Shown here piece by piece: positions 3,274 to 25,196 of a stretch of DNA of 64,000 nucleotides (the first letter of the stretch is position 1; every line of letters begins with the position of its first letter). The notes under the pieces were generated by a model. That model saw only the letters and a program-made list of their open reading frames with translations. It did not search any database and was not told the origin of the DNA. The position numbers were made by a program, and so were the translations under genes. This DNA is from Methanobacteriota archaeon. GTDB taxonomy: Archaea > Thermoplasmatota > E2 > DHVEG-1. The stretch is from positions 1-64,000 of the forward strand of contig CAVYNH010000006.1 in assembly GCA_963769885.1 (NCBI GenBank), read 5' to 3'.

Positions 3274-3346
3274 GCTCCCGTGGTGTAGTGGCCAATCATA
3301 AAGCCCTCTCGAGGCTTTGACTCGGGTTCAAATCCCGACGGGAGCA
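3274..3346 (+). tRNA. tRNA-Glu(CTC); anchor of the cassette array
   Basis: Acceptor GCTCCCG/CGGGAGC-A, anticodon stem AAGCC-CTCTCGA-GGCTT, T-arm TCGGG-TTCAAAT-CCCGA. No encoded CCA. Confidence 0.95.
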
Positions 3347-3518
3347 TTCCGATAATTAGCACGATTAGAGTATTTTCTAGATCTTCTCCCATTAATATAC
3401 CTGCCAATTATTAGCGCGTAATGGGAGATTTTGATGCCTTTTAACGGTAAAGGAAGGGGGCACTGCTGAGGGTTTATAAAGCATAAAATGTTTTAAACTA
3501 GTGATTTGGGGATCATGT

Positions 3519-3944
3519 ATGAAAGCCATAATAAGACAAGTCGAAGGGTGTTCTTTTATTGGCAAAGCGGATAGTAACCATTGGATTAATATTGACGCAC
3601 CGAAAGAATCTTTTGGTTCGGATGCCGCTGCTCATCCAATGGAGTTAATATTGATTGCTCTTGGCTGTTGTTCTGGATGCGATGTCGTCTCGATTTTAAA
3701 GAAAAAACAAATACAATTAAAAGGATTTGAAATCCATGTTGACGCTGAGCGATCAGAAACTTATCCAAAGGTGTTTACAAAGATACATCTAGAATACGTG
3801 TTTTATAGCCAAAAGATTGACCCAATACATGTAGAACGGGCGATTGCATTATCACAGGAGAAATATTGTTCTGTATTTGCTATGTTGAAATCATCAGTAT
3901 CTATCACCACATCTTATAAGATAACGAATGAAGTAAGTAAATGA
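3519..3944 (+). CDS. OsmC/YhfA family protein (cassette 1)
   Basis: PMELILIALGCCSGCDV...AIALSQEKYCSVFAML. Confidence 0.85.
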   Translation: MKAIIRQVEGCSFIGKADSNHWINIDAPKESFGSDAAAHPMELILIALGCCSGCDVVSILKKKQIQLKGFEIHVDAERSETYPKVFTKIHLEYVFYSQKIDPIHVERAIALSQEKYCSVFAMLKSSVSITTSYKITNEVSK

Positions 3945-4049
3945 ACAACATTTTAACTCCGAAAATCAATTCTTAAAGACTTTTTTTGGTAATGCTTAAA
4001 TAAATTCCCCAATTGTAGTTCGAGATACCACAATCAAATTGAGGAGAGC

Positions 4050-6470
4050 ACGACGAAAAACAAAACCACATCCGACTATAAAACAATCTCCATTGAAGAA
4101 ACGATTGAACTACTGAAAACATCTATAAATGGACTAACGGAATCCGAGGCAAAACATCGCCTTGAAACATTTGGGTATAATAAGATAAAGGAAGAAAAAC
4201 GGCATCCTTTAATTGATTTTTTTTCCCGGTACTGGGGACCCATGCCCTGGCTATTAGAAATAGCAATCATTCTATCATATTTCCTCGATCATTATCTGGA
4301 AGCAGTAATCATTTTCATTTTACTCACGGTAAACGTCATCATTGGTTTTATCCATGCACACCATTCTCAAAAAGTCCTTGATTTATTAAAAAAACGATTA
4401 GCAGTCAAAGCAAAGCTACAGCGCGATGGAGCCTGGATAATAAAAAACGCACAGGAGATTGTCCCAGGCGATATCTTTGTACTGGAACTTGGGGACCTGG
4501 TGCCTGTTGATGCCAAGATCATAAAAGGAGAGATTTCTGTTGATCAATCAGCATTAACCGGCGAATCCTTACCCATTGATGCCCATCGGTCAGATATCAT
4601 CTACTCCAGTACTCTGGTAACACGAGGAGAAGCATTCTGCGTAGCGGTGAATACCGGGGTAAATACCTCATTTGGTCGAACCGCTGAGTTGCTACAAGCA
4701 GCCAAACCGAAATCCCATCAAGAAAAAATCATCATGACTATTACAAAATATATGATGTATTTCGGGATGGCGGCGTTGATCGCAGTTGCAATTTTTGCAT
4801 TGTTCGCAGGAATCACGTATATTTCGATTCTCACGTTCGTCGTGATCTTTCTTATGGGCGCGATTCCTGTGTCTCTTCCAGCGGTTATCACCATTGTCCA
4901 ATCCGTAGGTGCGATGGAACTTGCCAAGGAAGATGTGCTCGTAACGCGGCTTGATTCCATTGAGGATGCAGCGTCGATTGATGTGCTCTGTCTCGATAAA
5001 ACAGGTACCATTACCCAAAACAAACTATCGGTCACCGACATCATCCCATTTACAGGGTATACAAAAGAGGATGTTGCGCTGTTCGCGCGGTTAGCATCGC
5101 TCAAAGCAAGTAAAGAATTGATCGACACTGCGATCATCGATTATACAGTGTCTCTAGGATTTGATGTTACTCCTTATAAAAAGATCCATTTCACTCCATT
5201 CGACCCATCGATTAAAAGAACAGAGGCACTTATCGAGAAAGACAACAGACGCTTCACAGTAATGAAAGGATCACCACAAGTAATACTCAATCTGTGCAAA
5301 GAATTAGATGAAAAAAATCGAAAAAATGTTGATACCTCAATTGAAGACCTATCAAAGAAAGGATACAGGACGCTTGCGGTAGCCCGATCCACCGACGATA
5401 ACATAGACCACCTTCAGTTCTTAGGATTAGTCGCATTAGCTGACCCCATACGACCAGATTCCAGGAATATGATCGAAGCAGTAAAACAACTTGGAATCAA
5501 ACCTCTGATGTTGACTGGCGATAACATCAATATTGCCAAAGAAATTGCGCAGCAAGCATCGATTGGGAGTAAGATTATTCGCATGAATGATCTCAAAGAT
5601 TTAGGTGAAGAAGAGAAAATAAAAATTTGTGAAGAATATGACGGGTTCGCTGAAATATATCCAGAGGACAAATACAAGATTGTCACATTGCTACAATCAT
5701 GCGGTCATACGGTTGGCATGACAGGCGACGGAGTTAATGACGCGCCCGCGCTCAAACAGGCAGAGATGGGGATAGCAGTCAGCAATTCAACCGATGTCGC
5801 AAAAGGAGCAGCAAGCGTCGTGCTGGAAGAACCCGGACTTGGAGTAATCGCTGATGCAATACGGATAAGCAGGAAAACCTATCAACGAATGCTGACGTGG
5901 GTCATCAACAAAGTCACCAAAACAATTGAGTTTATCGTTCTATTGACGATAGGGTTCTTCTGGCTTCATAATCTTATCATCACGCTTTTAGGTATGGCAC
6001 TTCTCTTGGTCGCCAATGATTTTGCAACAATATCACTGGCAACCGATAATGTGAAAGACACACGTACTCCAGACACATGGAACATCAAGAATATTACCTT
6101 AGCCTCACTTGTTATAGCTATATTGTTAGTGATTCAAGGCGCAATCACTATATATCTGGGGGAAACCTATTTCAATCTGATTTGGGTGCAACTGACGACG
6201 TTTGTCACTTTGACGCTCGTTTTTCATAGTTTGTTGAGAGTGTCTATCGTGCGAGAACGGAGACATTTCTGGTCTTCACGACCTGGAAACGGATTAATGA
6301 TTTCAATCGTAGTAACCATTACAGCATTCACATTATTGGGCATCTATGGTGTTATTATGCCACCGATTACTCTTGGCCAAGTGGTCTTTACGTTAGGATT
6401 CTCAGCGCTCTTCATCTTCGTCTTTGTAGATCCAATAAAATATTGGGCATTTAAAAAATTCTGCTTATAA
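4050..6470 (+). CDS. Plasma-membrane proton-efflux P-type ATPase (P3A-like) (cassette 1)
   Basis: TGES, DKTGT and GDGVNDAPALK motifs. The frame stays open upstream of ATG 4242 and encodes the Cation_ATPase_N segment GLTESEAKHRLETFGYN. Probable start is ACG at 4050 after GAGGAG. Confidence 0.9.
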   Translation, partial: TTKNKTTSDYKTISIEETIELLKTSINGLTESEAKHRLETFGYNKIKEEKRHPLIDFFSRYWGPMPWLLEIAIILSYFLDHYLEAVIIFILLTVNVIIGFIHAHHSQKVLDLLKKRLAVKAKLQRDGAWIIKNAQEIVPGDIFVLELGDLVPVDAKIIKGEISVDQSALTGESLPIDAHRSDIIYSSTLVTRGEAFCVAVNTGVNTSFGRTAELLQAAKPKSHQEKIIMTITKYMMYFGMAALIAVAIFALFAGITYISILTFVVIFLMGAIPVSLPAVITIVQSVGAMELAKEDVLVTRLDSIEDAASIDVLCLDKTGTITQNKLSVTDIIPFTGYTKEDVALFARLASLKASKELIDTAIIDYTVSLGFDVTPYKKIHFTPFDPSIKRTEALIEKDNRRFTVMKGSPQVILNLCKELDEKNRKNVDTSIEDLSKKGYRTLAVARSTDDNIDHLQFLGLVALADPIRPDSRNMIEAVKQLGIKPLMLTGDNINIAKEIAQQASIGSKIIRMNDLKDLGEEEKIKICEEYDGFAEIYPEDKYKIVTLLQSCGHTVGMTGDGVNDAPALKQAEMGIAVSNSTDVAKGAASVVLEEPGLGVIADAIRISRKTYQRMLTWVINKVTKTIEFIVLLTIGFFWLHNLIITLLGMALLLVANDFATISLATDNVKDTRTPDTWNIKNITLASLVIAILLVIQGAITIYLGETYFNLIWVQLTTFVTLTLVFHSLLRVSIVRERRHFWSSRPGNGLMISIVVTITAFTLLGIYGVIMPPITLGQVVFTLGFSALFIFVFVDPIKYWAFKKFCL

Positions 6471-6546
6471 AAAGTAGCCGATTTATTCGGAGGGCCTATT
6501 TATTCAACTCAAGTCATGTATTGAGGGATTTATAGCCGTGAGTCTT

Positions 6547-6562
6547 AAATCCCGAGGGAGCA
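6547..6562 (+). repeat. att-like repeat R1 (tRNA-Glu 3' end, 1-nt deletion)
   Basis: AAATCCCGA-GGGAGCA; the downstream ~36 nt also resemble the sequence after the tRNA. Confidence 0.85.
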
Positions 6563-6746
6563 TGCCAATAATTAGCATGGTTTGAGTATCTTCTACATTT
6601 CCCCGGTTCTGAAAGACTGTGATCGACAAACTTGATGGTATTATCGGAGATGTTGACATTTTGATTATTGTAAATACTATAGGGTGCATGTAAAAGAAAA
6701 TTAAATATTCTCCTATAACATTCTCATAATAAGATTTTTCAGGCTT

Positions 6747-7703
6747 ATGAAAAAAATAGCAATATTAACACGAGATTGCGCGGGTGTAAACGCAGCCATA
6801 CGAGCCGTGGTACGAACAGCATGCGGGTACCGCATCGAAGTCATTGGGGTGTTAAAAGGCTACGATGGTTTGATTGATGGGAATTTCATTACACTCAACC
6901 GTGGTTCAGTGTCAGGGATTATTAATTTAGGGGGAACGATCCTTAAAACTTCTCGCTCGAAGAGATTTATCACTGATGCAGGTCAAAAACAAGCAGTCAA
7001 CAACATCAAGGAACAGAAAATAGAAGGAATCATTGTAATCGGGGGGAATGGCTCTTTAACAGGTGCGCACATCCTTGCAACGAAATATGGAATCCCTGTT
7101 GTTGGTATCCCAGCGACAATTGATAATGATATCACTGGTGTTGACCTATCGATTGGTGCCGATACCGCGGTCAATGTTGCGTTAGACGCGGTAGATAAAA
7201 TCCGGGACACTGCAACGAGTTTGGAACGAATTTTCATTGTAGAAGTTATGGGTCATGAAAGCGGCTACATAGCTATGCAGGTTGCTTTAGCTGGAGGCTG
7301 TGAGGAAGTATTGCTTCCTGAAAAAGAATTCACTATCGAATCGATGTGCACAGAGATACAACAAGGGAATGCGAAAGGAAAATCAAGCTGGATTATTATT
7401 GTTGCCGAGGGAAGGGCTAAGGCTCATGATGTCGCTCGTTTTATTACCCAAAAAACAAAACTTGAGACGAGGGTTGCTGTGTTAGGACACATTCAGCGGG
7501 GAGGACATCCAACCGCTGTTGATAGAATTCTTGCGTCTCAGCTTGGAAACCAAGCGGTTGAGGTTTTACGAAACGGTCAAACTGATCTTTGTGTGAGTTT
7601 GAAAAATGATAAATTAATCACCATTCCTCTGTCCGTGGTATTTCAGCCGAAAAAAATCGATGTATCAGAGACCTATAAATTGATAAAACTTCTTACAAAG
7701 TAA
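6747..7703 (+). CDS. pfkA: ATP-dependent 6-phosphofructokinase (cassette 2)
   Basis: GGTILKTSR, GGNGS, PATIDNDI, EVMG, LGHIQRGG. Confidence 0.9.
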   Translation: MKKIAILTRDCAGVNAAIRAVVRTACGYRIEVIGVLKGYDGLIDGNFITLNRGSVSGIINLGGTILKTSRSKRFITDAGQKQAVNNIKEQKIEGIIVIGGNGSLTGAHILATKYGIPVVGIPATIDNDITGVDLSIGADTAVNVALDAVDKIRDTATSLERIFIVEVMGHESGYIAMQVALAGGCEEVLLPEKEFTIESMCTEIQQGNAKGKSSWIIIVAEGRAKAHDVARFITQKTKLETRVAVLGHIQRGGHPTAVDRILASQLGNQAVEVLRNGQTDLCVSLKNDKLITIPLSVVFQPKKIDVSETYKLIKLLTK

Positions 7704-7776
7704 GAAAAATTTGATTCTATACGAAATTGTATTTATGTAAACGTCCATAATCTGAATTGAAAACGAGGAACATAGA

Positions 7777-9930
7777 ATGCCAAGTATTAAGAGTCCATTA
7801 TCGGAGATTCCTGAGAGAATTTCCGGTCTTTCAGAATTAGCGTATAACTCCTGGTGGAGTTGGCATCCGGAAGCACGAATGTTGTTCAAAATGATTGATA
7901 GAGCTTCATGGAAATTAAGTGTTCACAATCCTGTTAAAATGCTGCTTTCTATCGATAATACCATATTGAAGAATATGGTGAAAGACCAAAAGTTTTTACG
8001 GCAATATGATGCGGTTATTGCGCGCTTTCATGAAGAGATGAAAACAAACACAGGCTGGTTTCTTGAAAATATTACACGGCGGGATGATTTGTCACTTGCG
8101 TTTTTTTCTGCGGAATATGGTCTTCATCATTCCCTTCCACTTTATGCGGGAGGGCTTGGGTTTCTCGCTGGAGATCTGCTCAAAGAAAGTAGCGACCTTG
8201 GAATCCCTGTCGTTGCTGTAGGATTTATGTATCCCGAAGGGTACGTTCAACAACGAATCAGCTCCGACGGATGGCAACAAGACGATAATGAGCCTATCGA
8301 TAGAGAATCTGCTCCCATCACCCGTGTATATGATACGAAAGGAAAATATCGGGTAATCAGAGTTCCTTTTTTTGAGCCTGCTCTCAACGTGGGATTCTGG
8401 AAGGTTCAGGTGGGTCGTGTTGAACTCTATCTCATGGACACCGATATCAGTGAGAACGATCCATGGAACCGAGGAATCACCTCGCATTTGTACATCGGTA
8501 GCCCTGAACAACGCCTTCGTCAGGAAATTGTCCTTGGCATCGGTGGCGCTGAAGTACTTCGACAAATGGGAAAGAGGCATTCAGTGCTTCATTTAAATGA
8601 AGGACATACCGTGTTTGCTATCTTAGAACGAATCCGTGAGAAAGTTACAACTGGCATGAGTTTCAATGAAGCATTCGAACAGACACGCCAAACAACGATT
8701 TTTACCACACATACACCAGTTCCCGCAGGAAACGATATTATTCCGTTCTCTCTTGTAGAAAAGTATTTTTCAGGGTATTGGCCTGCCCTTGGTTTAGATC
8801 GAGGTTCTTTTCTCGCATTAGGTATTGACCCAAAGGATCCAAACGCAGGATTCAATATGACTGCTTTTGGGTTAAAAGGATCACGCTACCATAATGGCGT
8901 CAGTACACGCCATGGGGTCGTAGCTCGAAAGATGTGGCATTCGTTGTGGCCAGAGGTACCAGAACAAAAGGTCCCTATTGATTCAATTACCAATGGAATC
9001 CATGTTCCGACATGGATCGAACCAAAAATGCAGCTCCTTTTCGATAAATATCTTGGGCCAGATTGGATCTCAAAGCATGAGGACCCTGAGATTTGGAGGC
9101 ATATTGACGATATACCAGACGAGGAACTCTGGCAGACCCATTATTGGCTTAAAACAAAATTGGTGATACGCATCATGGATCGCGCGCGTCAGCGGATGGA
9201 TGAACACCCAGACCCAAAGATTATTCTCGCATCAGGTGTGTTACTAGACCCGAATGTGTTGACTATTGGTTTTGCCCGCAGATTTGCGACCTATAAACGA
9301 GCGACCTTGATTTTCCAGGATATCCAACGTCTTCAAAACATTATAAATAATCGTTGGAAACCTATTCAAATCATTTTCGCAGGAAAAGCACATCCAGCGG
9401 ATGACCAAGGTAAACGACTCATACAACAGGTGTTCAACATTGCAAAAGATGCTGCCTTTGGTGGACGAATTGCATTTGTTGAAGATTACGACGAAAACTT
9501 AGCCCAATATTTAACCCATGGTGTTGATGTTTGGTTGAATAATCCTCAACCTCCCTACGAGGCATGTGGGACGAGCGGGATGAAAGCCTCATTGAATGGC
9601 GTTCCGAATCTGAGTATTCTTGATGGGTGGTGGATTGAGGGATATAACGGTAAAAACGGATGGTCATTTGGGGATAAAGAGGGAAATCGAAGCGATAGCG
9701 AAGATGCGTCTGCTATCTATGAACTCCTTGAAAAAAGAGTCATTCCACTGTACTACGATGTTGATGATGATGGCTTTCCTGATAAATGGGTTAAATTAAT
9801 GAAGGAAACGATAAAAAGCACTGCAGCACCCTTTAGCTCACGCAGAATGATGAAAGAATATGCCATAAAATTTTACCAGCCTGCGTTACAATTTGCCTCC
9901 GACATTCAAGTAGATAAAAAAAACACTTAA
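7777..9930 (+). CDS. glgP: Alpha-glucan (glycogen/maltodextrin) phosphorylase (cassette 2)
   Basis: YAGGLGFLAGD, HLNEGH, FARRFATYKR and the PLP-lysine motif EACGTSGMK. Confidence 0.95.
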   Translation: MPSIKSPLSEIPERISGLSELAYNSWWSWHPEARMLFKMIDRASWKLSVHNPVKMLLSIDNTILKNMVKDQKFLRQYDAVIARFHEEMKTNTGWFLENITRRDDLSLAFFSAEYGLHHSLPLYAGGLGFLAGDLLKESSDLGIPVVAVGFMYPEGYVQQRISSDGWQQDDNEPIDRESAPITRVYDTKGKYRVIRVPFFEPALNVGFWKVQVGRVELYLMDTDISENDPWNRGITSHLYIGSPEQRLRQEIVLGIGGAEVLRQMGKRHSVLHLNEGHTVFAILERIREKVTTGMSFNEAFEQTRQTTIFTTHTPVPAGNDIIPFSLVEKYFSGYWPALGLDRGSFLALGIDPKDPNAGFNMTAFGLKGSRYHNGVSTRHGVVARKMWHSLWPEVPEQKVPIDSITNGIHVPTWIEPKMQLLFDKYLGPDWISKHEDPEIWRHIDDIPDEELWQTHYWLKTKLVIRIMDRARQRMDEHPDPKIILASGVLLDPNVLTIGFARRFATYKRATLIFQDIQRLQNIINNRWKPIQIIFAGKAHPADDQGKRLIQQVFNIAKDAAFGGRIAFVEDYDENLAQYLTHGVDVWLNNPQPPYEACGTSGMKASLNGVPNLSILDGWWIEGYNGKNGWSFGDKEGNRSDSEDASAIYELLEKRVIPLYYDVDDDGFPDKWVKLMKETIKSTAAPFSSRRMMKEYAIKFYQPALQFASDIQVDKKNT

Positions 9931-9941
9931 GACATCGTTTA

Positions 9942-11414: not shown

Positions 11415-11593
11415 GTAATTCACTATTTTTTAAGAATTGGCAGGTATTCGTCGCTTAAATATTATGTCCTTGTGATCCAATAGATGATGAAATAGGGGCT
11501 GCGCCCATATAATCCTGTTCTGCCTTCGTTTCTGGGTAAAATTTTTCCATTCAGTCGATTCAAATTGTTTGTATCCAATCTGGAACTCTTCGT

Positions 11594-11949
11594 ATGGATA
11601 TGGGGTATCCGGTTCTTAATGAGAACGGAAATCTTGTCAGCATCCTTACCCATCATGATATTTATAATTCGATTTTAGAGGATAAGTACGATCTTAAGTC
11701 AAAGACGTCGAATCCAAGGATTTACTACTTACATATCCAAATGAATCCCTGGAGGAAACCATTAATAGGATGGTGAAAAAAGATGTCAGTCATGTTCCCG
11801 TGGTTGATCCATCTAATCCGACTCACCTTATTGGTTTAATTACAAAGGGAGATATCTTGAAAGCCCATCATAAAAAACGAGTGATAGATGCAATGCGTAT
11901 CCATTTCACACTGCGTAATATTTTACCTAAAAATTGGAAAAAGGAATGA
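11594..11949 (+). pseudogene. Truncated, frameshifted CBS-pair fragment (resembles the C-terminus of a ClC/CBS protein)
   Basis: GYPVLNENGNLVSILTHHDI, frameshift at ~11697, then VKDVESKDLLLTYPNESLEETINRMVKKDVSHVPVVD...LIGLITKGDILKA. No N-terminus. Confidence 0.7.
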
Positions 11950-12002
11950 ATATTGATCTTCTTCCTTTTACAGAAAAAAGGGGATTTATACTCGTGAGCG
12001 CC

Positions 12003-12019
12003 AAATCCCGACGGGAGCA
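12003..12019 (+). repeat. att-like repeat R2
   Basis: AAATCCCGACGGGAGCA, 17/17 identical to tRNA-Glu 3330-3346. Confidence 0.95.
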
Positions 12020-12128
12020 TTTTTTATATATTTATGACGTCACCATTTTAGGGTGAGTTTTAAATCATCTATACAAATTACTTTGCAATACAAAGTATTA
12101 TATACTACAAACTACATATCAGTATATA

Positions 12129-14221: not shown

Positions 14222-14229
14222 ATGCACTC

Positions 14230-15554: not shown

Positions 15555-15756
15555 TTGATACAGATCCTAAAAAAGATCTTGCTTTCCTCTTTTTAATTTG
15601 TCTAATAAGTATTTTTTCGTAAAAATACTGTTGTCTCGTCCAAAAAATGAAAGCATACCTTTAATTCACCATTGATAGTAAAAGATATGTAGGGTCATTC
15701 ATATTGAACTCACGTAATTCTTTATCTGGAAAAAATTCTTGGTTTGCAAGGAAACC

Positions 15757-17307: not shown

Positions 17308-17325
17308 CGGAGGCGAGATACATCG

Positions 17326-18969
17326 TTGTTGGCAAAACAAGTAATGAAGAAATTCCACAGCGTGAAACTCAAGGTCATCCTGCCCCTCTTGGTTATTCTT
17401 CTAGCAGTATTTCTCATTAGTTCATTGGTCATTATTGAACGGGAATCAAAGGCAGCGAAAGACACTATCATTAGCACTGCTGAGTCTTTCTCCAGCTTAT
17501 CTGTGGTCTATGTGATTGACAATTATCAGCTGTATTATGATTCTGGTTTTTATAAATTCATTGAAGTCATCGATGGTTTAATGAAACTGAACGCCAACCT
17601 CATCGAAACACAAATCGTCGATGTGAACGGGAAAATTCTCTTCGACTACACGGAGATACAGGAAGGAAAATACAATGAACAGACAAACGGGGAACGATTC
17701 CTCGAAAATGCAACATTGATACAAAGAGCCGGCGACCCGACCTCTTCTCTTATTCTCAATGAAACCACACGACGTATTGACATCATCCAGCCGTATTTCG
17801 ATGAAACGGGGAGACATGACTATTCCGTGAGATATGTTTTTTCGCTTTCTCGTCTGGATGCAATGACACACGAGATGATTATTACCATATTGATGTATTC
17901 TGGCGTCTTCATTGTCGTGTCTTTCCTCCTGATTTATTTCCTTTTTAATTACTTCATTTCAGCTCCGATCGGGGAGTTGACCAAAGGCGTTCGTACGATG
18001 AGCACCGGAACGCTAGGACATAAGGTGAACATCACATCAAAGGATGAAATCGGTGAGTTGGCAACCGCATTCAATACGATGAGCGCCGATCTCAAGCTTT
18101 CCAGAGACAATTTGGAGGAGTACAGCAAAAATCTGGAAAAACTCGTGGCTGAACGTACAAAAGAATTAGAAGAAAAAACGAATCGTCTTCAGCAAATCAA
18201 TCAAGATTTACTGGTCGCACGAGAAGAGCTCAACGTATTGAATAAGAATCTCGAGGAACGAGTAATAGAACGAACAAAAGAAGTGGAGAAATTACTCAAG
18301 CAAAAAGATGAGTTCATCACCCAACTGGGTCACGATCTGAAAAATCCTCTAGGTCCCCTGATCAATCTACTTCCACTCCTTGAAGAACAAGAAGCGGATG
18401 CTGCAAAAAAAGAGATGTTGACTGTTCTGCATCGGAATGCCGATTACATGAGAAATCTCGTTGTCAAAACACTCGAACTTGCGGTGTTAAATTCTCCGAA
18501 TACGAAGTTTTCCATTGAAAGGATGAACCTATATACAGAAGTCAGCCAAATCATTGAACATAAAAAGATTCTGTTCGATGTAAAACAAGTAAAAATTTCT
18601 AACAATATCGATCATGCGTTGTTCGTAAAAGCAGACCGATTACGACTTGAAGAGCTGCTGACAAACATCTTTGAAAATTCTGTGAAATACTGCAAAGAGG
18701 AGTGCAAGATTATCATCGATGCAGAACAGACAAATGACCTCGCCAAAATCTCTATCGCAGATAAGGGCATCGGGATGACCAAAGAAGAAATCGAACGCAT
18801 CTTTGACGAGTTCTACAAAGCCGATTCTGCGCGTCATGACATTCAGAGTACTGGACTAGGAATGTCGATTTGTAAACGAATTGTTGAGAAACATGGGGGT
18901 AGTATTTGGGTGGAAAGCAAGGGTCCTGGCAAGGGCACAACCGTGTTCTTCACCTTACCAGCAGCATAA
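17326..18969 (+). CDS. Membrane sensor histidine kinase with HAMP domain (cassette 6)
   Basis: Two TM segments, HAMP (DEIGELATAFNTM), H-box GHDLKNPL, N/G1/F/G2 boxes. Confidence 0.92.
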   Translation: MLAKQVMKKFHSVKLKVILPLLVILLAVFLISSLVIIERESKAAKDTIISTAESFSSLSVVYVIDNYQLYYDSGFYKFIEVIDGLMKLNANLIETQIVDVNGKILFDYTEIQEGKYNEQTNGERFLENATLIQRAGDPTSSLILNETTRRIDIIQPYFDETGRHDYSVRYVFSLSRLDAMTHEMIITILMYSGVFIVVSFLLIYFLFNYFISAPIGELTKGVRTMSTGTLGHKVNITSKDEIGELATAFNTMSADLKLSRDNLEEYSKNLEKLVAERTKELEEKTNRLQQINQDLLVAREELNVLNKNLEERVIERTKEVEKLLKQKDEFITQLGHDLKNPLGPLINLLPLLEEQEADAAKKEMLTVLHRNADYMRNLVVKTLELAVLNSPNTKFSIERMNLYTEVSQIIEHKKILFDVKQVKISNNIDHALFVKADRLRLEELLTNIFENSVKYCKEECKIIIDAEQTNDLAKISIADKGIGMTKEEIERIFDEFYKADSARHDIQSTGLGMSICKRIVEKHGGSIWVESKGPGKGTTVFFTLPAA

Positions 18970-19094
18970 CTGCCTTAAGACGGAGAAAAAGAGACTGGAT
19001 TTCTCATTGTCATCAACAGAAATATTTCATTGAGTTCACCTACAGAAATAAATATTAAAGACGTCCAAGATATATCTGTAGAGGCAGAGAAATC

Positions 19095-19481
19095 ATGAAA
19101 AAAATCATGTTAGTCGATGATGAAAAGGATCAGATATTTTTCATTAAAACTTCTTTTAAGAATTTATTTGGAAAAGATTATATGATTGTCCCTGCCGAGA
19201 GCGGCGAAAAATGCTTTGAACTATTAAATAAGCAAGAGATCCCTGATCTAATACTTTTGGATATCATGATGCCAAAGATGAACGGATGGGAGGTGTTCGA
19301 CCGGCTACGCGCGAATCCCTTGTGGAAGGATATTCCGATTATCTTTCTGACTGCGCGAACCGATGAATTTGCTGAGCATGCAGGAGTGCTCATCGCCGAA
19401 GATTACATTAAGAAACCAATTGAAATTAAAGAGTTAAAGATCCGTATCGATAATGTGTTAAAAAAGTCGAAGAAGAAATAG
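19095..19481 (+). CDS. Single-domain response regulator (cassette 6)
   Basis: LVDD, LLDIMMPKMNG, FLTA, KP. Confidence 0.92.
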   Translation: MKKIMLVDDEKDQIFFIKTSFKNLFGKDYMIVPAESGEKCFELLNKQEIPDLILLDIMMPKMNGWEVFDRLRANPLWKDIPIIFLTARTDEFAEHAGVLIAEDYIKKPIEIKELKIRIDNVLKKSKKK

Positions 19482-19535
19482 CACAAACATGTTCTCCCAT
19501 ATTTCTCCTTTACTCTATGGTTTTTTGTAAAACGA

Positions 19536-20507
19536 TTATATTTTCTCGGGGAGAATATTCGATTTGAATACCTCGGTGACATAGAGGTAGTCATAATTTG
19601 CGATGTCGTCAGGGAATTTTTTTCGTAGGTCTTCCATCACACAGTAGAAGTGTTCAAAATTCGTCGCATATAATGCGATTTCCAGGTCATACCCACCGAT
19701 TGCCTTATGAATCTCCCAGAGGAATGGGTTATCGCTTAGATAGGTGATGATTTGGTTTTTCTTGTTGTAGTCACGGAGGGATAGGTTGACAATGAATTCC
19801 CGTAAGCCAAGTTTATTGATATCCATTGTAATTGAATACCTTTGGATGACCCCTGATTTAATGAGTTTGTTTGTCCGAGAATGAACGGTCACTGTCGACG
19901 CATTCACTTGGGCGGCGATTTCAACGCTGTTGATCCGTGTGTTTTTTGCAAGCAGATTTAATATTTTATGGTCTATTGCGTCGACGTCAACAGTAAACCC
20001 ATTGTCTCGATATTCATAGGCATGTTCATGCGACGCTTCTAGTTCGTTGATAAGGAGGGAGTGTTTATATCCGAATGATTCGTAGAGCTGAGAAAAAAAT
20101 ATTTCTTTGAAATAATACCGATAGTGCCGTAGGGTTTCTTCATAGAACGCATAAAAATGGTTCGGGGATTTCACAAGGATAGTAATGATGAGATCGTACC
20201 GCCCCTTTGTGGATGCGATTTTCCAGGTGTTATCATGGTTGACAAAATGGGCGACAATCTCCTTTTCCTTATCGGGTGACGCGTACTGGAGAACAATATA
20301 AAGACGGTAAACAGAAAACCCAAGTTTAAAGACATCAATCATGGCATTGAAACCCTTAATGATTCCTTTGGCCTGCAGCCGTTTGATTCGGTATTCGACG
20401 ACATTTTTTTGGAGACCGACTTCTTTTGCTATGGATGAAAAAGACTGCCTGGAGTTCAAAAACAAATGATAGAGAATTTTATGGTCCTTGGAATCGAGTT
20501 CTCGCAC
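19536..20507 (-). CDS. Tandem-domain Lrp/AsnC regulator (cassette 6)
   Basis: Two HTH-AsnC units (LDSKDHKIL..., VDAIDHKIL...). Confidence 0.88.
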   Translation of the reverse strand: MRELDSKDHKILYHLFLNSRQSFSSIAKEVGLQKNVVEYRIKRLQAKGIIKGFNAMIDVFKLGFSVYRLYIVLQYASPDKEKEIVAHFVNHDNTWKIASTKGRYDLIITILVKSPNHFYAFYEETLRHYRYYFKEIFFSQLYESFGYKHSLLINELEASHEHAYEYRDNGFTVDVDAIDHKILNLLAKNTRINSVEIAAQVNASTVTVHSRTNKLIKSGVIQRYSITMDINKLGLREFIVNLSLRDYNKKNQIITYLSDNPFLWEIHKAIGGYDLEIALYATNFEHFYCVMEDLRKKFPDDIANYDYLYVTEVFKSNILPEKI

Positions 20508-20759
20508 AAAAAATCATCGTTTATTGAGCTATTAAATTTTTCCAATTTTTTTTCCTATTACTACTATCATTCCGGATGGTAGGTGGAGCGAAGCCGGAAA
20601 TGATGATTTTATGAAAATTGGACAAATCCACAATCACCTCGTAATTTATTTTCTTTTTGAGCAAATTTCTTGGATATAGTCTTTAGTAATGCATCATCGC
20701 TGTTTTTTCATGAGGCAAACCAATGGAAAATGCTGTTCCATACATAGGAAGGTAAGAAT

Positions 20760-22133
20760 ATGAAAAAGATCATAGCATTTTTGGCGATAGGGATTTTGAC
20801 CCTAGGCGGAATTGGGGCGAGTGCGTTTTCTACCAATAACATCAAGACACGAATGACAAGTGCTGACGATTATGACATGGTGATCATCGCGCCGGAAAAA
20901 TTTGTCTCGTCTCTCCAACCTCTTGTTAATCATAAAAACAGCCATGATGTCCATACATCCATAAAAACAACCGAGGCAATTTATACAGAATACGAAGGTC
21001 GGGATAAGGCTGAGCAAATAAAGTATTTCATTAAAGATGCTATTGAACGATGGAATATTCAATATGTCTTACTTGTTGGTGGGATGAAACCTCTCAGTTT
21101 TCATTGGCTTGTCCCTGTCAGATACTCAAATCTGGATGATGGATCCGCCCATAAAGTATTCCTTACTGATTTGTACTTTGCTGATATCTATAAGGGTAAC
21201 ACCTCAGAGTTTGACGATTGGGATAGCAATGGCAACGGGGTGTTTGCCGAGTGGGGGGTTAACGGTGATAAGCTGGATTTGAAGCCCGATGTTGCTGTCG
21301 GTCGGCTTCCCTGTAGAACGACTGGTGAAGTAAAAACAGTGGTTGAAAAAATTATCACCTATGAGAATACGACATATGGAAAAAGATGGTTTCGACAAAT
21401 GGTCGTTGTTGGAAGTGATACCTTCCCTGATCATCCTGGATATGAGGGTGAAGCCACCTGTGATATTGCCGCTAGTTATATGGAAAATTTCGCCATAAAA
21501 AGGTTATACGCGTCAACTGGGAATCTATCAGGTCCAGACGACATTATTGGTGCGGTGAATCTGGGATGTGGGTTTTTATTGACTCGTGGACAAGGCGGGA
21601 CCGATCGAGTGAGAATGGTGATGCCGAATGGATCAGAGTTCATCGCTTTTGATATCGACTCGATTTCAAAGTTAAAAAATAAAGATATGTACCCGATTTG
21701 TGTGTTAGCTGAATGTATTCATGGTCGATTCGACGTGGGAAGAATCAACATTCTGAAATTACTTCAGAAGAATCCTGAGTATAACATCTATGATTGCATC
21801 TACGAATGCATCGCATGGAGGTTAGTGAGAGAAAAGAACGCGGGAGCCATCGCCACAATAACAAATACAAACATCTGTTACGGCGCCTATGGTGATAATA
21901 ATCATAATGGTATTCCTGATGACGCAGAATTCTATGGAGGGTTCCTTGGGGTTGAACTATTCCGACTATACGCTCAAGAGGGACTAAATACGCTTGGTGC
22001 GCTTCATCAACAAGCGTTACTTAACTATATTAAATTGTACCCTGTGTACACAGATAAAATTCACTGTAAAAGCGTGCAGGAGTTTATCCTCTTCGGTGAT
22101 CCGAGTTTAAAAATCGGAGGATACGCAGAATAA
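20760..22133 (+). CDS. C25 (gingipain-like) peptidase homolog (cassette 6)
   Basis: Signal peptide, YVLLVGG, TDLYFADI, VGRLP, LFGDPSL. The position of the catalytic His reads GQG. Confidence 0.85.
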   Translation: MKKIIAFLAIGILTLGGIGASAFSTNNIKTRMTSADDYDMVIIAPEKFVSSLQPLVNHKNSHDVHTSIKTTEAIYTEYEGRDKAEQIKYFIKDAIERWNIQYVLLVGGMKPLSFHWLVPVRYSNLDDGSAHKVFLTDLYFADIYKGNTSEFDDWDSNGNGVFAEWGVNGDKLDLKPDVAVGRLPCRTTGEVKTVVEKIITYENTTYGKRWFRQMVVVGSDTFPDHPGYEGEATCDIAASYMENFAIKRLYASTGNLSGPDDIIGAVNLGCGFLLTRGQGGTDRVRMVMPNGSEFIAFDIDSISKLKNKDMYPICVLAECIHGRFDVGRINILKLLQKNPEYNIYDCIYECIAWRLVREKNAGAIATITNTNICYGAYGDNNHNGIPDDAEFYGGFLGVELFRLYAQEGLNTLGALHQQALLNYIKLYPVYTDKIHCKSVQEFILFGDPSLKIGGYAE

Positions 22134-22253
22134 ATTCGTATTCCTTTTCATCGAAAATATCATCGGGGGATGCTTACCGCTCGTGAGCGAACTTCGTAGC
22201 GGATTTCATACCAGACAGTAACTTCCTCCTGGGGGTTTGAACCCTTTACATGT

Positions 22254-22269
22254 AATCCCGACGGGAGCA
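22254..22269 (+). repeat. att-like repeat R6
   Basis: AATCCCGACGGGAGCA, 16/16. Confidence 0.95.
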
Positions 22270-22421
22270 TTGTTTCACTGTCTTCAGGAGAAAAAAAGGT
22301 CACTTTTCGCATCCCCTTTTGAGCATTTATGCCAGAGACTCAAATCCATTCCCTTGCATATTTTTATATACATGATTCATGTTACTTGCCATGTATTAGC
22401 ATAGCATAAAGAGGCGGATTA

Positions 22422-23318
22422 ATGAAAAGAAAATGTATGACGGTTGGAATCATTTTCTTGTTCGTGGGAATCAGCGCAATTCAAACGATTGCACAGGATA
22501 CTGAGAAAACGCTACCAACATTAAGAGGTAGTTGGTTGTACGTCGGTGGGAGTGGACCTGGAAACTATTCGAGAATACAGGATGCTATTAATAATGCGAG
22601 TGATGAAAATACGGTTTTTGTATATGATGACAGCTCACCATATTATGAAAATCTTATTATTAATAAATCAATTTCATTGATAGGCGAAAAAAAAGAGACA
22701 ACAATTATTGATGGAAGCGGCGGCAACATAATTATATTGATACAACAAACTGAAAATGTCCAAATACAAGGATTCACTATACGAAACAGCTCACGTTCAA
22801 AAATCGATTGGGATTATGCGAAGGGGATAGGAATTCAACTATTAGCGGCAAAATTTTGTAACATTTCTGATACAATAATTACTAATACAGATGTAGGAAT
22901 CTGTCTATTAAACTATATCTGGAATGAATTTACAGATAGTAATATGCTTTCAAAAAATATTATCATAAAAAATTCATTTGGTATAGCTCTTGATTGGGGA
23001 AGTGGTTACACTACCATAGAAAACAATGACCTTCGACTTAATTGGTACGGGTTAATAATTATCACTACAAATTCTAACACCATTATTAAAAATAATTTTA
23101 TGTGGAATTTCCGTTCGGTTTTACTGACCACTGACATTATGTGGCCGGATGGTAATCCACTCGATGAAATTGATCATAACATGTGGTCAATGAATTATTG
23201 GGGGCGATCTCAGTTTCTTCATCTCATACTTGGTCAAGCAAGAGTGGTCTATGATCATGCATCATGGAATGTTAGATATTTTGAGGTTGACTGGCATCCT
23301 GCACAAGAACCTTACTGA
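22422..23318 (+). CDS. Secreted NosD/CASH-like beta-helix protein (cassette 7)
   Basis: WLYVGGSGPGNYSRIQDAINNA, NYW, DWHPAQEPY. The stop codon lies inside the cassette right arm. Confidence 0.85.
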   Translation: MKRKCMTVGIIFLFVGISAIQTIAQDTEKTLPTLRGSWLYVGGSGPGNYSRIQDAINNASDENTVFVYDDSSPYYENLIINKSISLIGEKKETTIIDGSGGNIIILIQQTENVQIQGFTIRNSSRSKIDWDYAKGIGIQLLAAKFCNISDTIITNTDVGICLLNYIWNEFTDSNMLSKNIIIKNSFGIALDWGSGYTTIENNDLRLNWYGLIIITTNSNTIIKNNFMWNFRSVLLTTDIMWPDGNPLDEIDHNMWSMNYWGRSQFLHLILGQARVVYDHASWNVRYFEVDWHPAQEPY

Positions 23319-23331
23319 ACTATTGGCACGT

Positions 23332-23350
23332 ATTCCCGACGGGAACACCA
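23332..23350 (+). repeat. att-like repeat R7, followed by CCA
   Basis: ATTCCCGACGGGAACA-CCA. Confidence 0.85.
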
Positions 23351-23407
23351 TTGGGGCATTGAATCTCGAGTGATAGTCCCTGGTAGGGGAATTGAAAGGA
23401 AGGCTTT

Positions 23408-25039
23408 CTATTCCTTTTCAAGGAAGGGATACTTGTAGTCTGTCGGGGGCAGTAAATTTTCCTTGATGGTCCGCGGGCTGACCCAGGATAGTAAATTGAG
23501 GTACGAACCGGACTTATCGTTCGTCCCTGAGCATCGTGCGCCGCCAAAGGGTTGTTGCCCGACAACCGCACCCGTTGGTTTGTCATTAATGTAGAAGTTC
23601 CCCGCAGCATGCCTCAGAATCTTTGTTGCCAAGACAATTGCGTGGCGATCCTTGGCGAAAATCGACCCAGTCAACGCATAGGGTGATGTCTGGTCACATG
23701 TATGCAAGGTTTCTTCGAACTGGTCATCGTTGTACACATACACAGTCAGCACAGGGCCGAAGATTTCCTCTTCCATGGTGACGAAGTGTGGATTGGTCGT
23801 CTCAATGATGGTTGGTTCGACGAAGTAGCCTGTGGAGCCGTCGGTTTTTCCGCCGACGAGGATCTTCGCCTCGTTGGAATGACGGGCCTTCTCGATGTAC
23901 TCACAGATCGTATCAAACGCTGCCTTGTCGATGACGGCGTTGACGAAAGTGGTGAAATCCTCGACATCTCCTGTTTTGATCTCCTTAAGCACGGTCAGGA
24001 CACTGGTTTTCACGGAAGGCCAAAGGGAGGCAGGGATATAGGCCCGGGAGGCGGCGGAGCATTTCTGGCCTTGGTATTCAAACGCACCGCGGACCATGGC
24101 GGTAGCAACAGCTGCGGTATCAGCGGATGGGTGGACAAAGATGAAGTCTTTTCCGCCGGTCTCCCCGACGAGTTTCGGGTAGTTGTCATAGATGCTGAGG
24201 TTGTCGCTGATGGTCCTCCAAAACTTGCTGAAGACCGGTGTTGACCCGGTGAAATGGATGCCTGCTAGTCGCTTGTCTTTCAGGGCGACATTGCCGATGA
24301 GTTCACCGGAGCCGGGGAGGAAATTGATGACGCCGCGTGGGAATCCGGCTTCCAGGAAGATCTCCATGAGAAGGCTGTTCGATAGCAGCGAGGTCGATGC
24401 TGGTTTCCAGATCACGACGTTGCCTAGGATTGCTGGCGCAGTTGGGAGATTTCCTGCAATCGCTGTGAAGTTGAACGGAGTCACGACGAAGATGAATCCT
24501 TCCAGGGGCCGGTATTCAAGTCGGTTCAACGTCCCGGGAGAGGCATCAGGCTGGTCAGAGTAGACTTTCTGCATGTAGTAGGCGTTAAAACGCAGGAAAT
24601 CAATCATTTCGCAGGCGGCGTCAATCTCGGCCTGGTACGCGTTCTTGCTTTGGCCAAGCATGGTCGCTGCATTCAGCAAGAAGCGGTATTTTTTGGAGAT
24701 GAGTTCCGCTGCCTTCAAAGCGACGGATGCCCGTTCCGCCCAGGGGAGATCTTCCCAGGCGGGTTTGGCGGCCATGGCCGTTTCAATGGCATCGTGCACG
24801 AGCGCTGCGGTGACTTTATGATACGACGCTAAGACGCGGCGATGGTTATGCGGCATGACGACTTTCCCGACGTCACCGGTCGGGATTCTTCTTCCCCCGA
24901 TGATAGGTAGAATTTCTGTTTTCTTGCTTTGGAGAGTCTTGATTGCCTCAACGAGGGCTTTTCGTTCAGGGCTTCCGGGAGCATATTGGTAGGTTGGTTC
25001 ATTGGAGGGTTTAGGAATGTGAATAATGGTTTCGTCCAG
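23408..25039 (-). CDS. pruA: L-glutamate gamma-semialdehyde (P5C) dehydrogenase (cassette 8)
   Basis: NEP..YAPGSPER, ETGGKDF, EYQGQKCSA, EEIFGP, QQPFGG. The frame extends 61 codons past ATG 24856 to CTG 25039, preceded by GGTGAT. Confidence 0.92.
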   Translation of the reverse strand: MDETIIHIPKPSNEPTYQYAPGSPERKALVEAIKTLQSKKTEILPIIGGRRIPTGDVGKVVMPHNHRRVLASYHKVTAALVHDAIETAMAAKPAWEDLPWAERASVALKAAELISKKYRFLLNAATMLGQSKNAYQAEIDAACEMIDFLRFNAYYMQKVYSDQPDASPGTLNRLEYRPLEGFIFVVTPFNFTAIAGNLPTAPAILGNVVIWKPASTSLLSNSLLMEIFLEAGFPRGVINFLPGSGELIGNVALKDKRLAGIHFTGSTPVFSKFWRTISDNLSIYDNYPKLVGETGGKDFIFVHPSADTAAVATAMVRGAFEYQGQKCSAASRAYIPASLWPSVKTSVLTVLKEIKTGDVEDFTTFVNAVIDKAAFDTICEYIEKARHSNEAKILVGGKTDGSTGYFVEPTIIETTNPHFVTMEEEIFGPVLTVYVYNDDQFEETLHTCDQTSPYALTGSIFAKDRHAIVLATKILRHAAGNFYINDKPTGAVVGQQPFGGARCSGTNDKSGSYLNLLSWVSPRTIKENLLPPTDYKYPFLEKE

Positions 25040-25180
25040 CGTCGATCACCAGTGACAAAGCATGGACAATAACTATATAATTACTTGTTTGGGAACTGAA
25101 CCTTTGGCCCATATTTCCTTCAGGGGATTTTTGCAAAAATATTCTTCCACGCTCCTGGCGAAAGTGAACCCTCGGTAGGC

Positions 25181-25196
25181 AATCCCGACGGAAGCC
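25181..25196 (+). repeat. att-like repeat R8 (distal end of the array)
   Basis: AATCCCGACGGAAGCC, 14/16, preceded by a family-B right arm. Confidence 0.85.

Follow-up and report, generated by a model that had tools for sequence, protein, structure and literature searches.

The window, the whole 64,000-nt stretch of a Thermoplasmatota contig that was analysed, contains an array of ~22 kb next to a tRNA-Glu(CTC) gene. The array consists of eight cargo-only modules (M1 to M8), seven of which are clearly foreign. The contig measures 785 kb and starts with the window, 2.9 kb from a tRNA-Ser(CGA) gene. The junctions of the modules (J1 to J8) carry copies of the 13-nt 3' end of this tRNA-Glu, CCCGACGGGAGCA on the plus strand, referred to here as the att core. 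The features of the locus are as follows.

2888-2977, minus strand: tRNA-Ser(CGA), divergent from tRNA-Glu; the pair is the anchor kept in relatives
3273-3347, plus strand: tRNA-Glu(CTC); its final 13 nt (3334-3346) are the att core
3348-6550, plus strand: module M1, OsmC-like protein and P-type ATPase; GC 0.40; type-A/a arms
6551-6562, plus strand: junction J1, core with a one-base deletion; a diverged T-arm-like arm before it, the tRNA's own arm after it
6563-12006, plus strand: module M2, phosphofructokinase, glucan phosphorylase and pyruvate kinase (minus strand); GC 0.41; type-A/a arms
12007-12019, plus strand: junction J2, exact core; 17 nt match the tRNA end
12020-13173, plus strand: module M3, 216-aa protein of no known family and winged-helix regulator
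13174-13186, plus strand: junction J3, exact core
13187-14229, plus strand: module M4, nucleotidyltransferase (MNT)/HEPN pair of toxin-antitoxin type
14230-14242, plus strand: junction J4, exact core; 15 nt on, the arm motif CAGGAGAAA at 14258-14266
14243-15541, plus strand: module M5, secreted NosD-like beta-helix protein; GC 0.39; type-B/b arms, which are imperfect inverted repeats
15542-15554, plus strand: junction J5, core with one mismatch
15555-22256, plus strand: module M6, family-5 solute-binding protein, histidine kinase, response regulator, Lrp-type regulator (minus strand) and C25 peptidase; GC 0.41
22257-22269, plus strand: junction J6, exact core; arm motif at 22285-22293, tRNA-Leu-like tail at 22342-22358
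22270-23334, plus strand: module M7, second NosD-like protein, 39% identical to that of M5; GC 0.35
23335-23347, plus strand: junction J7, core with one mismatch; G001 likewise has a Glu-type core here, next to the orthologous gene
23348-25183, minus strand: module M8, aldehyde dehydrogenase; GC 0.525; common to the sister species G001
25184-25196, plus strand: junction J8, the most degenerate core (two mismatches) and distal end of the array; type-b left arm as in J5-J7

The eight further copies of the core lie between 6.5 and 25.2 kb. Exact copies begin at 12007, 13174, 14230 and 22257, one-mismatch copies at 15542 and 23335, and a two-mismatch copy at 25184, all on the plus strand. The copy with a one-base deletion (6551-6562) is the one that the first-pass annotation had placed at 6547, with AAAT counted in; its start coordinates lie 3-4 nt upstream because part of the T-loop was included. 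All eight copies (8/8) are intergenic and share the same orientation, as had been described there. At up to two mismatches, 12 matches to the core were counted in the window, compared with 1.96 +/- 1.38 in shuffled versions of it (n=100), none of which (0/100) reached 12. The remaining two-mismatch matches (29777, 59359 and 61234) are located within coding sequence and appear chance-like, in agreement with the earlier statement that the other ~39 kb hold no clear copy. Taken as bare words, the copies that start at 25184 and 6551 carry little weight. They are nevertheless considered real because their non-tRNA flanking arms are common to other junctions.

Within the whole 2.09-Mb assembly, the exact 13-mer is confined to the array and is not scattered over the genome. 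One-mismatch copies are found at a second tRNA-Glu (UUC), which has a 1.1-kb cassette of its own, and two more in an island on another contig of the assembly; a few others appear chance-like. Arrays of this kind are not restricted to tRNA-Glu(CTC). The genome holds about twenty such units, distributed over twelve tRNAs, and an integrase is present in 2/12 of these arrays. Copies of tRNA tails are found downstream of and co-oriented with the tRNA in 24 cases and inverted in none. The notion that the tRNA serves as the sole attI-like site is not supported, since M7 and arrays elsewhere in the genome mix cores from different tRNAs.

The GC content of M1-M7 ranges from 0.35 to 0.44, compared with 0.55-0.58 for the genome, and that of M8 (0.525) is near-native. 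A Pfam search of the 17 main open reading frames of the array yielded no recombinase, replication or transfer gene. Similarly, tblastn with nine integrases detected no integrase remnant or fragment in the array or at any module end; the sole match was trivial, as it corresponds to the part of a reading frame from the G002 genome that runs through the tRNA gene itself. Both searches agree with the description of the modules in the first-pass annotation. PF00589 has no match in the window, and the nearest matches in the genome lie at a distance of hundreds of kb or on other contigs.

The arms at the start and end of a module are of the same type, A/a in M1 and M2 and B/b in M5 and M7. This is as expected, because a circular P-core-P' element leaves such matched arms after integration. 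Adjacent arms differ in type. Rfam matches were limited to the two tRNAs, and the junctions therefore belong to no known RNA family.

In related genomes, the tRNA-Ser/tRNA-Glu pair is a conserved anchor of the locus. The pair is 85% identical in G001, which belongs to the same genus, and was further found in G002, G016 and two other MAGs. In G001, the tRNA pair and the distal aldehyde dehydrogenase are kept and M1-M7 are all missing; the aldehyde dehydrogenase adjoins a low-GC array with Glu-type cores. In other relatives, the tRNA-Glu site is empty. M1-M7 are species-specific and M8 is common to the sister species; the comparison of relatives reveals wholesale cassette turnover or an empty site. 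M8 is probably the oldest unit of the array. The near-native GC content of M8 and its presence in G001 hint at the polarity proposed earlier, with the newest cassette nearest the tRNA. A further hint comes from the relative G004, in which a newer unit without an integrase has displaced an integrase-bearing one distally.

Two of the modules were found as the same units in other genomes. The M3 gene pair is present on five metagenome (JGI) contigs and on Logan contigs of three wetland studies, with 94-95% identity. On three of the five JGI contigs (L023, L026 and L027), the homology to M3 stops at J2 and J3, beyond which the sequences are different; on the other two (L024 and L025), the gene pair alone recurs, without Glu cores. 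The Logan contigs break at 12006 and 13184, again with different flanks. Counting the window and the JGI contigs, M3 occurs in at least three different neighborhoods. Copies of M4 with 75-78% identity and Glu-type cores at their bounds are found in at least two other contexts, and the closest homologue (87% identical) is located on an 18.6-kb contig. On three contigs, M4 follows an M5-type arm and a core, a combination that differs from the junction in the window. No integrase-like sequence was found in the M4-bearing contigs. M3 and M4 are therefore discrete, integrase-less compact units, and M3 is a mobile one. The earlier description of discrete integrase-free units thus holds for at least these two, whose breakpoints coincide with cores. 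Since they recur as the same units in other genomes, they look like hitch-hiking cassettes dependent on a borrowed tRNA-specific integrase.

A matching integrase is known from G002, a member of the same family but of another genus. Its tRNA-Glu(CTC) is followed by an 8.4-kb element that is flanked by the identical 13-nt core and encodes its own tyrosine integrase (L002:3291-4578, minus strand) along with restriction-modification cargo. The gene of this integrase type runs across its own attP. Relatives of the G002 integrase were located at 26 loci in Thermoplasmatales MAGs, 22 of which abut a tRNA 3' end, and ~20 of these 22 show a GGAG-centred motif that starts 8-12 nt past the tRNA. The same motif is found behind J4 and J6, that is, in M5 and M7 only; M1-M4, M6 and M8 have arms of other types, not tied to this integrase family. 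The family is so far confined to Thermoplasmatales/Thermoplasmatota MAGs. A second integrase family adjoins tRNA-Glu(UUC) in G001. The first-pass annotation had postulated a recombinase encoded elsewhere. Cognate integrases do exist in G002 and G001, but the 92%-complete assembly analysed here contains no tRNA-Glu-specific integrase, and activity in this genome would therefore need an incoming helper. On another contig, an integrase fragment (C4:93595) lies near a Glu-type core. The possibility that it is the decayed remnant of a local helper was dropped because it has no significant kinship to either tRNA-abutting family. Viral contigs returned nothing from an integrase-alignment scan or from a scan for the core-plus-motif pattern. 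Core-core joints, circles and empty sites numbered zero in run X1, the only run that holds this population (28% of sampled words), at a depth of ~2-4 and with contigs only. Three small joints in other runs were ignored, as they lie inside genes and have 90-95% identity.

The array probably arose by tandem accretion of non-autonomous, att-only cassettes at the tRNA, with integrases acting in trans as in CIME- or tycheposon-like systems. Each cassette would consist of cargo between two attP halves, namely the arm after one 13-bp core and the arm before the next. A tRNA-Glu-specific tyrosine integrase from an autonomous sister element, either co-resident or transient, would recombine attP with the tRNA 3' end. 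Integration would restore the tRNA and displace the older units together with the old tRNA end distally, and repeated events would stack the units. As the cassettes lack an integrase, they would depend on one supplied in trans. We infer this action in trans, as well as insertion mainly at the tRNA-proximal site. Cassettes may also be carried along when neighboring units excise together. The mixed tRNA cores within one array do not fit a simple scheme of one integrase and one site, and integrase decay does occur in the lineage: in G004, an 82-aa integrase stump lies behind the displaced core.

The latter observation bears on a rather unlikely alternative, in which the modules are once-autonomous islands that lost their integrase by deletion after integration, so that no mobilisation in trans takes place and the array is a graveyard. 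Integrase loss is the published account of integrase-less integrated elements of archaea (PMC8371274), and the cognate integrase is missing from this genome. However, all modules of the array (8/8) and the arrays at 10/12 tRNAs genome-wide lack an integrase, the array in the window retains no detectable remnant of one, and the proximal unit of G004 keeps only ~26 nt of arm and nothing of the integrase gene sequence. In addition, the compact integrase-less forms of M3 and M4, with their ends at cores, are the same in several unrelated contexts. Under decay, the same clean deletion would therefore have been needed independently each time.

It is also quite improbable that the units were shuffled between arrays and genomes without any integrase, by homologous recombination or gene conversion across conserved cores and arms (~30-100 bp) after uptake of entire array segments. 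The same arm types recur in different genera, arrays mix cores of different tRNAs, and homologous recombination between tandem elements has been proposed for module exchange among archaeal mobile elements (PMC8371274). Shuffling would be expected to leave breakpoints inside the longer shared arms, whereas the homology of the M3 and M4 copies to the window stops at most a few nt from the 13-nt core. Moreover, adjacent arms are of different types, and 13 nt of identity is very short for homologous recombination.

A dedicated recombinase that is encoded elsewhere in the genome, acts on all tRNA-end junctions and reads the arms instead of the core, which would make the system a true integron analogue, is very unlikely. 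The candidate is a tyrosine recombinase of 331/340 aa, present in two copies with 86% identity (C6:676482 and C4:123922) plus a fragment, and NosD-like cargo is found both near it and in the array. No link between this recombinase and tRNA-end junctions was found, however: CAGGAGAAA is not enriched around the 331/340-aa gene, and a k-mer search around the 340-aa copy yielded no exact repeated word. Folding of the eight junctions as single-strand DNA gave z-scores of -2.2 to +0.8 and no common hairpin, and the arm motif is tied instead to the tRNA-abutting integrase family.

Finally, the cores may be viewed as a miniature transposable element of tRNA origin (MITE- or SINE-like), which copied itself into the intergenic spaces of an island of ordinary genes. 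The relative G003, where junction units of ~90-150 bp with a Glu core occupy four loci without a detectable tRNA-Glu nearby, would fit this reading, but tRNA-Glu(CTC) was not located in the G003 genome and runs of N, which may hide the tRNA, abut two of the sites. The reading is extremely improbable, as the flanks of the nine cores contain neither terminal inverted repeats nor target-site duplications and vary in type between junctions, M3 and M4 travel together with their bounding cores, and the copies in the genome analysed here lie strictly downstream of, and co-oriented with, the cognate tRNA.

Among known systems, the locus looks like an archaeal counterpart of bacterial cis-mobilisable elements (CIMEs) and not like a true integron. 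CIMEs and the tandem accretion of ICE/IME-type elements are known from Streptococcus and other bacteria (PMC5704250; ICEberg 2.0, PMC6323972). As in CIMEs, att-flanked units without recombination or transfer genes are arranged in tandem at the site of a related integrase-bearing element, whose integrase would presumably mobilise them. Nine co-oriented cores bound the eight units as direct copies on both sides, the units contain no integrase/excisionase, replication or transfer function, and the G002 element, although from another genus, is an autonomous relative with the same core at the same site. Unlike CIMEs, the array is located in an archaeon, its units are smaller (1-7 kb, often one gene) and follow one another eight in a row. 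Further differences are that the same genome holds no helper, that the helper integrase gene crosses its own attP, and that we infer mobilisation here.

Tycheposons occupy variable, tRNA-adjacent islands of Prochlorococcus, with partial tRNA copies between them, and older elements are said to move deeper into the island as new ones arrive (10.1101/2020.12.28.424599). The islands contain adaptive cargo for transport, metabolism and defence as well as scattered integrase-less remnants (10.1101/2020.12.28.424599). The array shares the position at a tRNA, the partial tRNA copies and the cargo modules. Tycheposons proper encode an integrase and in many cases have replication genes; pieces that lack the integrase are described as degenerated remnants (10.1101/2020.12.28.424599). 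In the array, by contrast, the integrase-less compact unit is dominant, two such units recur in other genomes, and the integrases belong to an archaeal family.

Archaeal integrons were reportedly found in 2022. Integrons and CALINs are arrays of mostly co-oriented, small, recombinase-free cassettes that are drawn from a shared environmental pool, with older cassettes in distal position. The small, mostly co-oriented, recombinase-free cassettes from a shared pool, the apparent insertion end and the distal position of older units resemble this organization. The array differs in that it has no adjacent IntI-type gene or attI, and in that the repeat at its junctions is a tRNA 3' end without an attC-type imperfect palindrome or hairpin. 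Single, promoterless, co-oriented open reading frames are not the rule either: M2 and M6 contain 3-5 genes each, including regulators and genes on the opposite strand, and M8 is encoded on the opposite strand. The integron-like classification of the first-pass annotation was therefore not retained.

The tandem islands of Dehalococcoides are said to lie at a single tmRNA gene, to be larger and to carry a site-specific recombinase gene of their own. According to PMC3146451, these ssrA-targeted islands with adaptive cargo are separated by direct copies of the 3' end of the small RNA. For archaea, the review PMC8371274 describes 'gene capture' by tyrosine integrases (She et al. 2001, cited therein) that act on tRNA 3' ends with a short tRNA-derived core, as well as tandem integration and integrase-less integrated elements. 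In the SSV-type ('suicidal') elements, the integrase gene is split into int(N) and int(C) halves on either side of the captured element, whereas no integrase halves flank the modules of the array. In the literature searched, no description of long arrays of att-only mini-cassettes was found.

On a broader and more tentative reading, which is possible but less than probable, Thermoplasmatota may run an integron-analogous form of gene capture on tRNA ends, with a pool, integrases and hopping cassettes. A pool of minimal att-only cassettes, consisting of arms of <100 bp plus cargo, would be shared across genera. tRNA-specific integrases whose gene straddles attP would insert and excise the cassettes at about 1/4 of the tRNA genes, and cassettes with cores of other tRNAs would hop between arrays. 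The integrase-less state would then be a selected functional form rather than a product of decay.

The practical value is modest for now and consists of an improved annotation of islands and cassettes in MAGs and of a set of candidate tRNA-specific recombinases whose sites are defined. The system lends itself to direct tests, with one integrase family, a 13-bp core and short arms. If the cassettes are indeed serviced in trans, archaeal tRNA genes would be general docking points for a shared pool of exchangeable modules, with ion pumps, glycolytic enzymes, toxin-antitoxin pairs, surface proteins and signalling systems as the cargo at stake. This would extend helper-dependent hitch-hiking elements from bacteria to Archaea, where integrase-less integrated elements have so far been read as decay products, and would offer a concrete mechanism by which islands in uncultured Thermoplasmatota become hypervariable.

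The assembly (G000, 2.09 Mb, 7 contigs) is 92% complete, and the window covers the initial 64 kb of a 785-kb contig. A 13-nt core, CCCGACGGGAGCA, that constitutes the end of tRNA-Glu(CTC), is repeated downstream on the plus strand. The recurrence of this tRNA end at eight places, as described in the first-pass annotation, was borne out by the core search, with slight corrections to the coordinates. In the following list, tRNA genes are from ARAGORN and Rfam, core copies from a word search of the window (J1 from the window sequence) and module contents from Pfam. J1 to J8 are the core copies that end the cargo modules M1 (tRNA-proximal) to M8 (distal).

2888-2977, minus strand, tRNA-Ser(CGA)
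3273-3347, plus strand, tRNA-Glu(CTC)
6551-6562, plus strand, core copy with a single-base deletion (J1), ending M1: OsmC and P-type ATPase
12007, plus strand, exact core copy (J2), ending M2: phosphofructokinase, glucan phosphorylase and pyruvate kinase
13174, plus strand, exact core copy (J3), ending M3: 216-aa protein without family and winged-helix regulator
14230, plus strand, exact core copy (J4), ending M4: nucleotidyltransferase/HEPN pair
15542, plus strand, core copy with one mismatch (J5), ending M5: NosD-like beta-helix protein
22257, plus strand, exact core copy (J6), ending M6: solute-binding protein, histidine kinase, response regulator, Lrp-type regulator and C25 peptidase
23335, plus strand, core copy with one mismatch (J7), ending M7: NosD-like beta-helix protein
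25184, plus strand, core copy with two mismatches (J8), ending M8: aldehyde dehydrogenase

The window contains 12 core matches with ≤2 mismatches, compared to 1.96 ± 1.38 in shuffles, and J1 to J8 are all intergenic. The two weakest copies are confirmed by their flanks, whose arms recur at other junctions. Across the whole assembly, the exact core word is confined to this array. One-mismatch copies mark a second tRNA-Glu (UUC), which has its own 1.1-kb cassette, and are also found at two sites in an island on contig 4; the few remaining ones are chance-like.

The GC content is 35-44% between the tRNA and about 23.3 kb, compared to 55-58% in the remaining window and the genome. Recombinase, replication and transfer genes were not found in M1-M8 by Pfam, and a tblastn search with nine tyrosine recombinases from G000 and its relatives detected no integrase remnants in the first 27 kb. 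The sequences flanking the cores (arms) are non-random. Within a module, the arm after the upstream core pairs with the arm before the downstream core, with type A/a pairs in M1 and M2 and type B/b pairs in M5 and M7. This is the arrangement left by an integrated circular element with a P-core-P' site. Type-a arms have the appearance of a diverged T-arm and extend the tRNA homology; in type-B/b arms, the word CAGGAGAAA is found together with imperfect inverted repeats.

In the start arms of M7 (22342-22358) and M5 (about 14300-14325), a tRNA-Leu-like tail or T-arm-like fragment is located about 70-85 nt past the Glu core; a junction apparently derived from a tRNA-Leu array is thus present in these NosD-like cassettes. 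Mixed cores of different tRNAs in single arrays are also present elsewhere in G000. On the 3' side of tRNA-Ser(CGA), the GC content is low (0.44) as far as the contig start (1-2887), and a second tRNA-like T-arm/acceptor fragment is found about 27 nt past this tRNA (2845-2865, minus strand). This low-GC DNA probably opens a second array, located on the far side of the tRNA pair and truncated where the contig ends. Further along, in the window's native DNA (30000-64000), strong GC skew forms kilobase-scale blocks of alternating sign, from about -0.49 to about +0.43.

The strongest new evidence concerns the view that the modules are independent mobile units, which gained support for M3 and M4: both recur elsewhere with homology ending at cores. 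M3 was found in Logan contigs from three wetland studies (90-96% identity), whose homology to the window breaks off precisely at 12006 and 13184, where J2 and J3 have their outer edges. The M3 gene pair is also encoded on five JGI metagenome contigs (94-95% nucleotide identity) from hosts with 33-40% GC. Three of the five are homologous from core to core (12006/12008 to 13187/13199), with flanks that are unrelated to the window and represent at least two further contexts; in the other two, homology is limited to the gene pair. M4 copies in contigs from several samples are 75-78% identical, with homology from the J3 core to the J4 core, and are bounded by cores of the tRNA-Glu(UUC) type. In one contig group, a type-a arm ends the upstream neighbor. 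In a second group, the 110 nt ahead of M4 are homologous to the M5 end arm plus J5, a junction combination that is absent from the window. No integrase-like sequence was found in the contigs bearing M4 copies. These core-bounded copies in differing contexts indicate that at least two modules were transferred or exchanged as units lacking an integrase, the breakpoints falling on the core. On two JGI contigs (L024, 3700-5068; L025, 700-2100), the M3 pair is enclosed by repeats that consist of CAGGAGAAA and then a short ATG-containing palindrome, without Glu cores, which suggests that the M3 cargo has a second kind of junction site.

The same-genus relative G001 has the tRNA-Ser/tRNA-Glu pair as well, with 85% identity across 480 nt. 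Next come a 160-nt 'empty' unit, made up of the arm motif and a second core, and then low-GC DNA; the contig ends 550 nt past the tRNA. None of M1-M7 was found in G001. The M8 aldehyde dehydrogenase is present on another contig (77% identity), beside a Glu-type core and an array of low GC content that reaches the contig end, with an arm-like junction on the far side. Since M8 is also present in G001 and near-native in GC content (0.525), the oldest unit would be the most distal one, with species-specific foreign units (M1-M7) toward the tRNA. This order agrees with insertion near the tRNA and with the earlier proposal that the newest cassette is nearest to it. Among further family members, the site holds one 1.2-kb integrase-less unit in G016 and a single distant core in G013; in G008 and two MAGs, the tRNA pair is present with no core copies downstream of tRNA-Glu. 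Conserved junction units of 90-150 bp are found at several loci of G003 (L016, L017, L019) and G008 (L021, L022), in the order palindromic left arm, Glu core, inverted arm motif and type-a-like arm. No tRNA-Glu is detectable near these units, two of which adjoin runs of N.

All 44 tRNA genes of G000 were surveyed for copies of their 13-nt tail (≤1 mismatch, within 30 kb). Downstream, 24 copies are co-oriented and none inverted; upstream, the numbers are 4 and 3. Arrays are found at twelve tRNAs, including Pro(CGG), Glu(UUC), three Leu, Ser(GCU), Met/Ile(CAU) and Arg(GCG), typically with units of 1-2 kb. An integrase is present in only two, the 12.8-kb tRNA-His and the 8.4-kb tRNA-Pro(UGG) element. 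The genome has eight PF00589 matches and one serine recombinase, none near tRNA-Glu. CAGGAGAAA occurs 64 times in G000 (about 16 expected). At least 14 of these are located close to a tRNA end or tail copy, a few tens of nt away at most; they either immediately follow the core in direct orientation or immediately precede it in inverted orientation. The inverted arm motif also lies about 15 nt past tRNA-Phe and tRNA-Thr(GGU) (contig 5, about 64987; contig 7, about 113994), neither of which has a tail copy in the downstream 30 kb (≤1 mismatch); here it may represent arm scars or have another role such as termination. Secreted NosD-like beta-helix proteins (>30 tblastn matches) and C25-type peptidases (>25 matches) form very large paralogous families in G000, several members of which adjoin tRNA-tail junctions.

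In the same-family relative G002, an 8.4-kb element with the identical 13-nt core on both flanks is located behind tRNA-Glu(CTC). It encodes a tyrosine-type integrase (429 aa) on the opposite strand, with the 3' end of the gene reaching into the tRNA; a methylase and a DpnII-type restriction enzyme are among the cargo. This integrase is 43% and 28% identical to the G000 integrases beside tRNA-Arg(CCG) and tRNA-Pro(UGG), respectively. A scan of species-representative genomes with the integrase alignment returned 26 loci, all from Thermoplasmatales/Thermoplasmatota-type MAGs. The gene adjoins a tRNA 3' end (Glu, Val, Pro, Arg, Lys or Met) in 22 of them, and in about 20 of these 22, by inspection, a GGAG-centered word (as in CAGGAGAAA or TCGGAGAAA) follows 8-12 nt past the tRNA. 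The same word is found past J4 and J6; at least two modules, M5 and M7, thus bear the arm signature of this integrase family. In G001 and G004 it also occurs past the tRNA-Glu genes, and in G000 past tRNA-Pro(CGG) tail copies and the tRNA-Leu(CAA) and tRNA-Met ends. A second-family integrase, 43% identical to the G000 tRNA-His integrase, is encoded directly past tRNA-Glu(UUC) in G001, whose array has UUC-type cores.

The tRNA-abutting integrase genes span their own att site (L002 of G002, 2941-4578; G000 contig 7, 200123-201409). In G002, the integrated frame extends across the entire tRNA gene, on its opposite strand (545 codons), while the reconstructed excised form stops two codons past the core (436 codons). 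Integration thus exchanges the C-terminal tail; in SSV-type integrases, by contrast, the split is N-terminal. Two further tyrosine recombinases of 331/340 aa (86% identical) are located on contig 6 (676482-677504) and contig 4 (123922-124917), with a fragment at contig 4, 109010; NosD-like genes cluster around the contig-6 copy (655-694 kb).

The best-supported reading, which we regard as reasonably probable, holds that att-only cassettes accreted in tandem and rely on tRNA-specific integrases from autonomous sister elements. The sister elements would supply these enzymes in trans, and the cassettes would use them to accrete at the tRNA. The main rival, rather unlikely in our assessment, is simple decay of once-autonomous elements, the default explanation in the literature for integrase-less archaeal elements (PMC8371274). 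Decay does occur: in G004, an integrase-less unit adjoins the tRNA, followed by a displaced degenerate core and a G002-type integrase reduced to an 82-aa C-terminal stump. The proximal and the stump-bearing unit have only about 26 nt of arm in common, and this genome shows accretion and decay side by side. However, decay leaves unexplained the recurrence of M3 and M4 as identical compact integrase-less units in unrelated neighborhoods, as well as the ten of twelve G000 arrays that are integrase-free without detectable stumps. Exchange through the arms by homologous recombination is improbable; breakpoints located at a 13-nt core, with arms of differing type on its two sides, fit it poorly. A dedicated recombinase serving the junctions is more doubtful still, no link between such an enzyme and the junctions having been found. 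A MITE-like origin of the repeats is contradicted by their anatomy and hardly credible.

The integron-like system proposed in the first-pass annotation did not hold up: IntI, attI and an attC-like fold are absent, and the modules include multi-gene ones, with genes on both strands. Functionally among the closest known systems are bacterial cis-mobilisable elements (CIMEs) and accretion arrays (PMC5704250, PMC6323972), tycheposon islands and archaeal 'gene capture' at tRNA genes. Our literature search found no description of long att-only mini-cassette arrays at archaeal tRNAs. In sum, the array described in the first-pass annotation exists and its interpretation is supported in part; the array represents a novel archaeal form of a known type of element. 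Added here are cassette-level evidence for two modules (M3 and M4), a counterpart that has its own integrase and shares both site and core, and a common arm signature.
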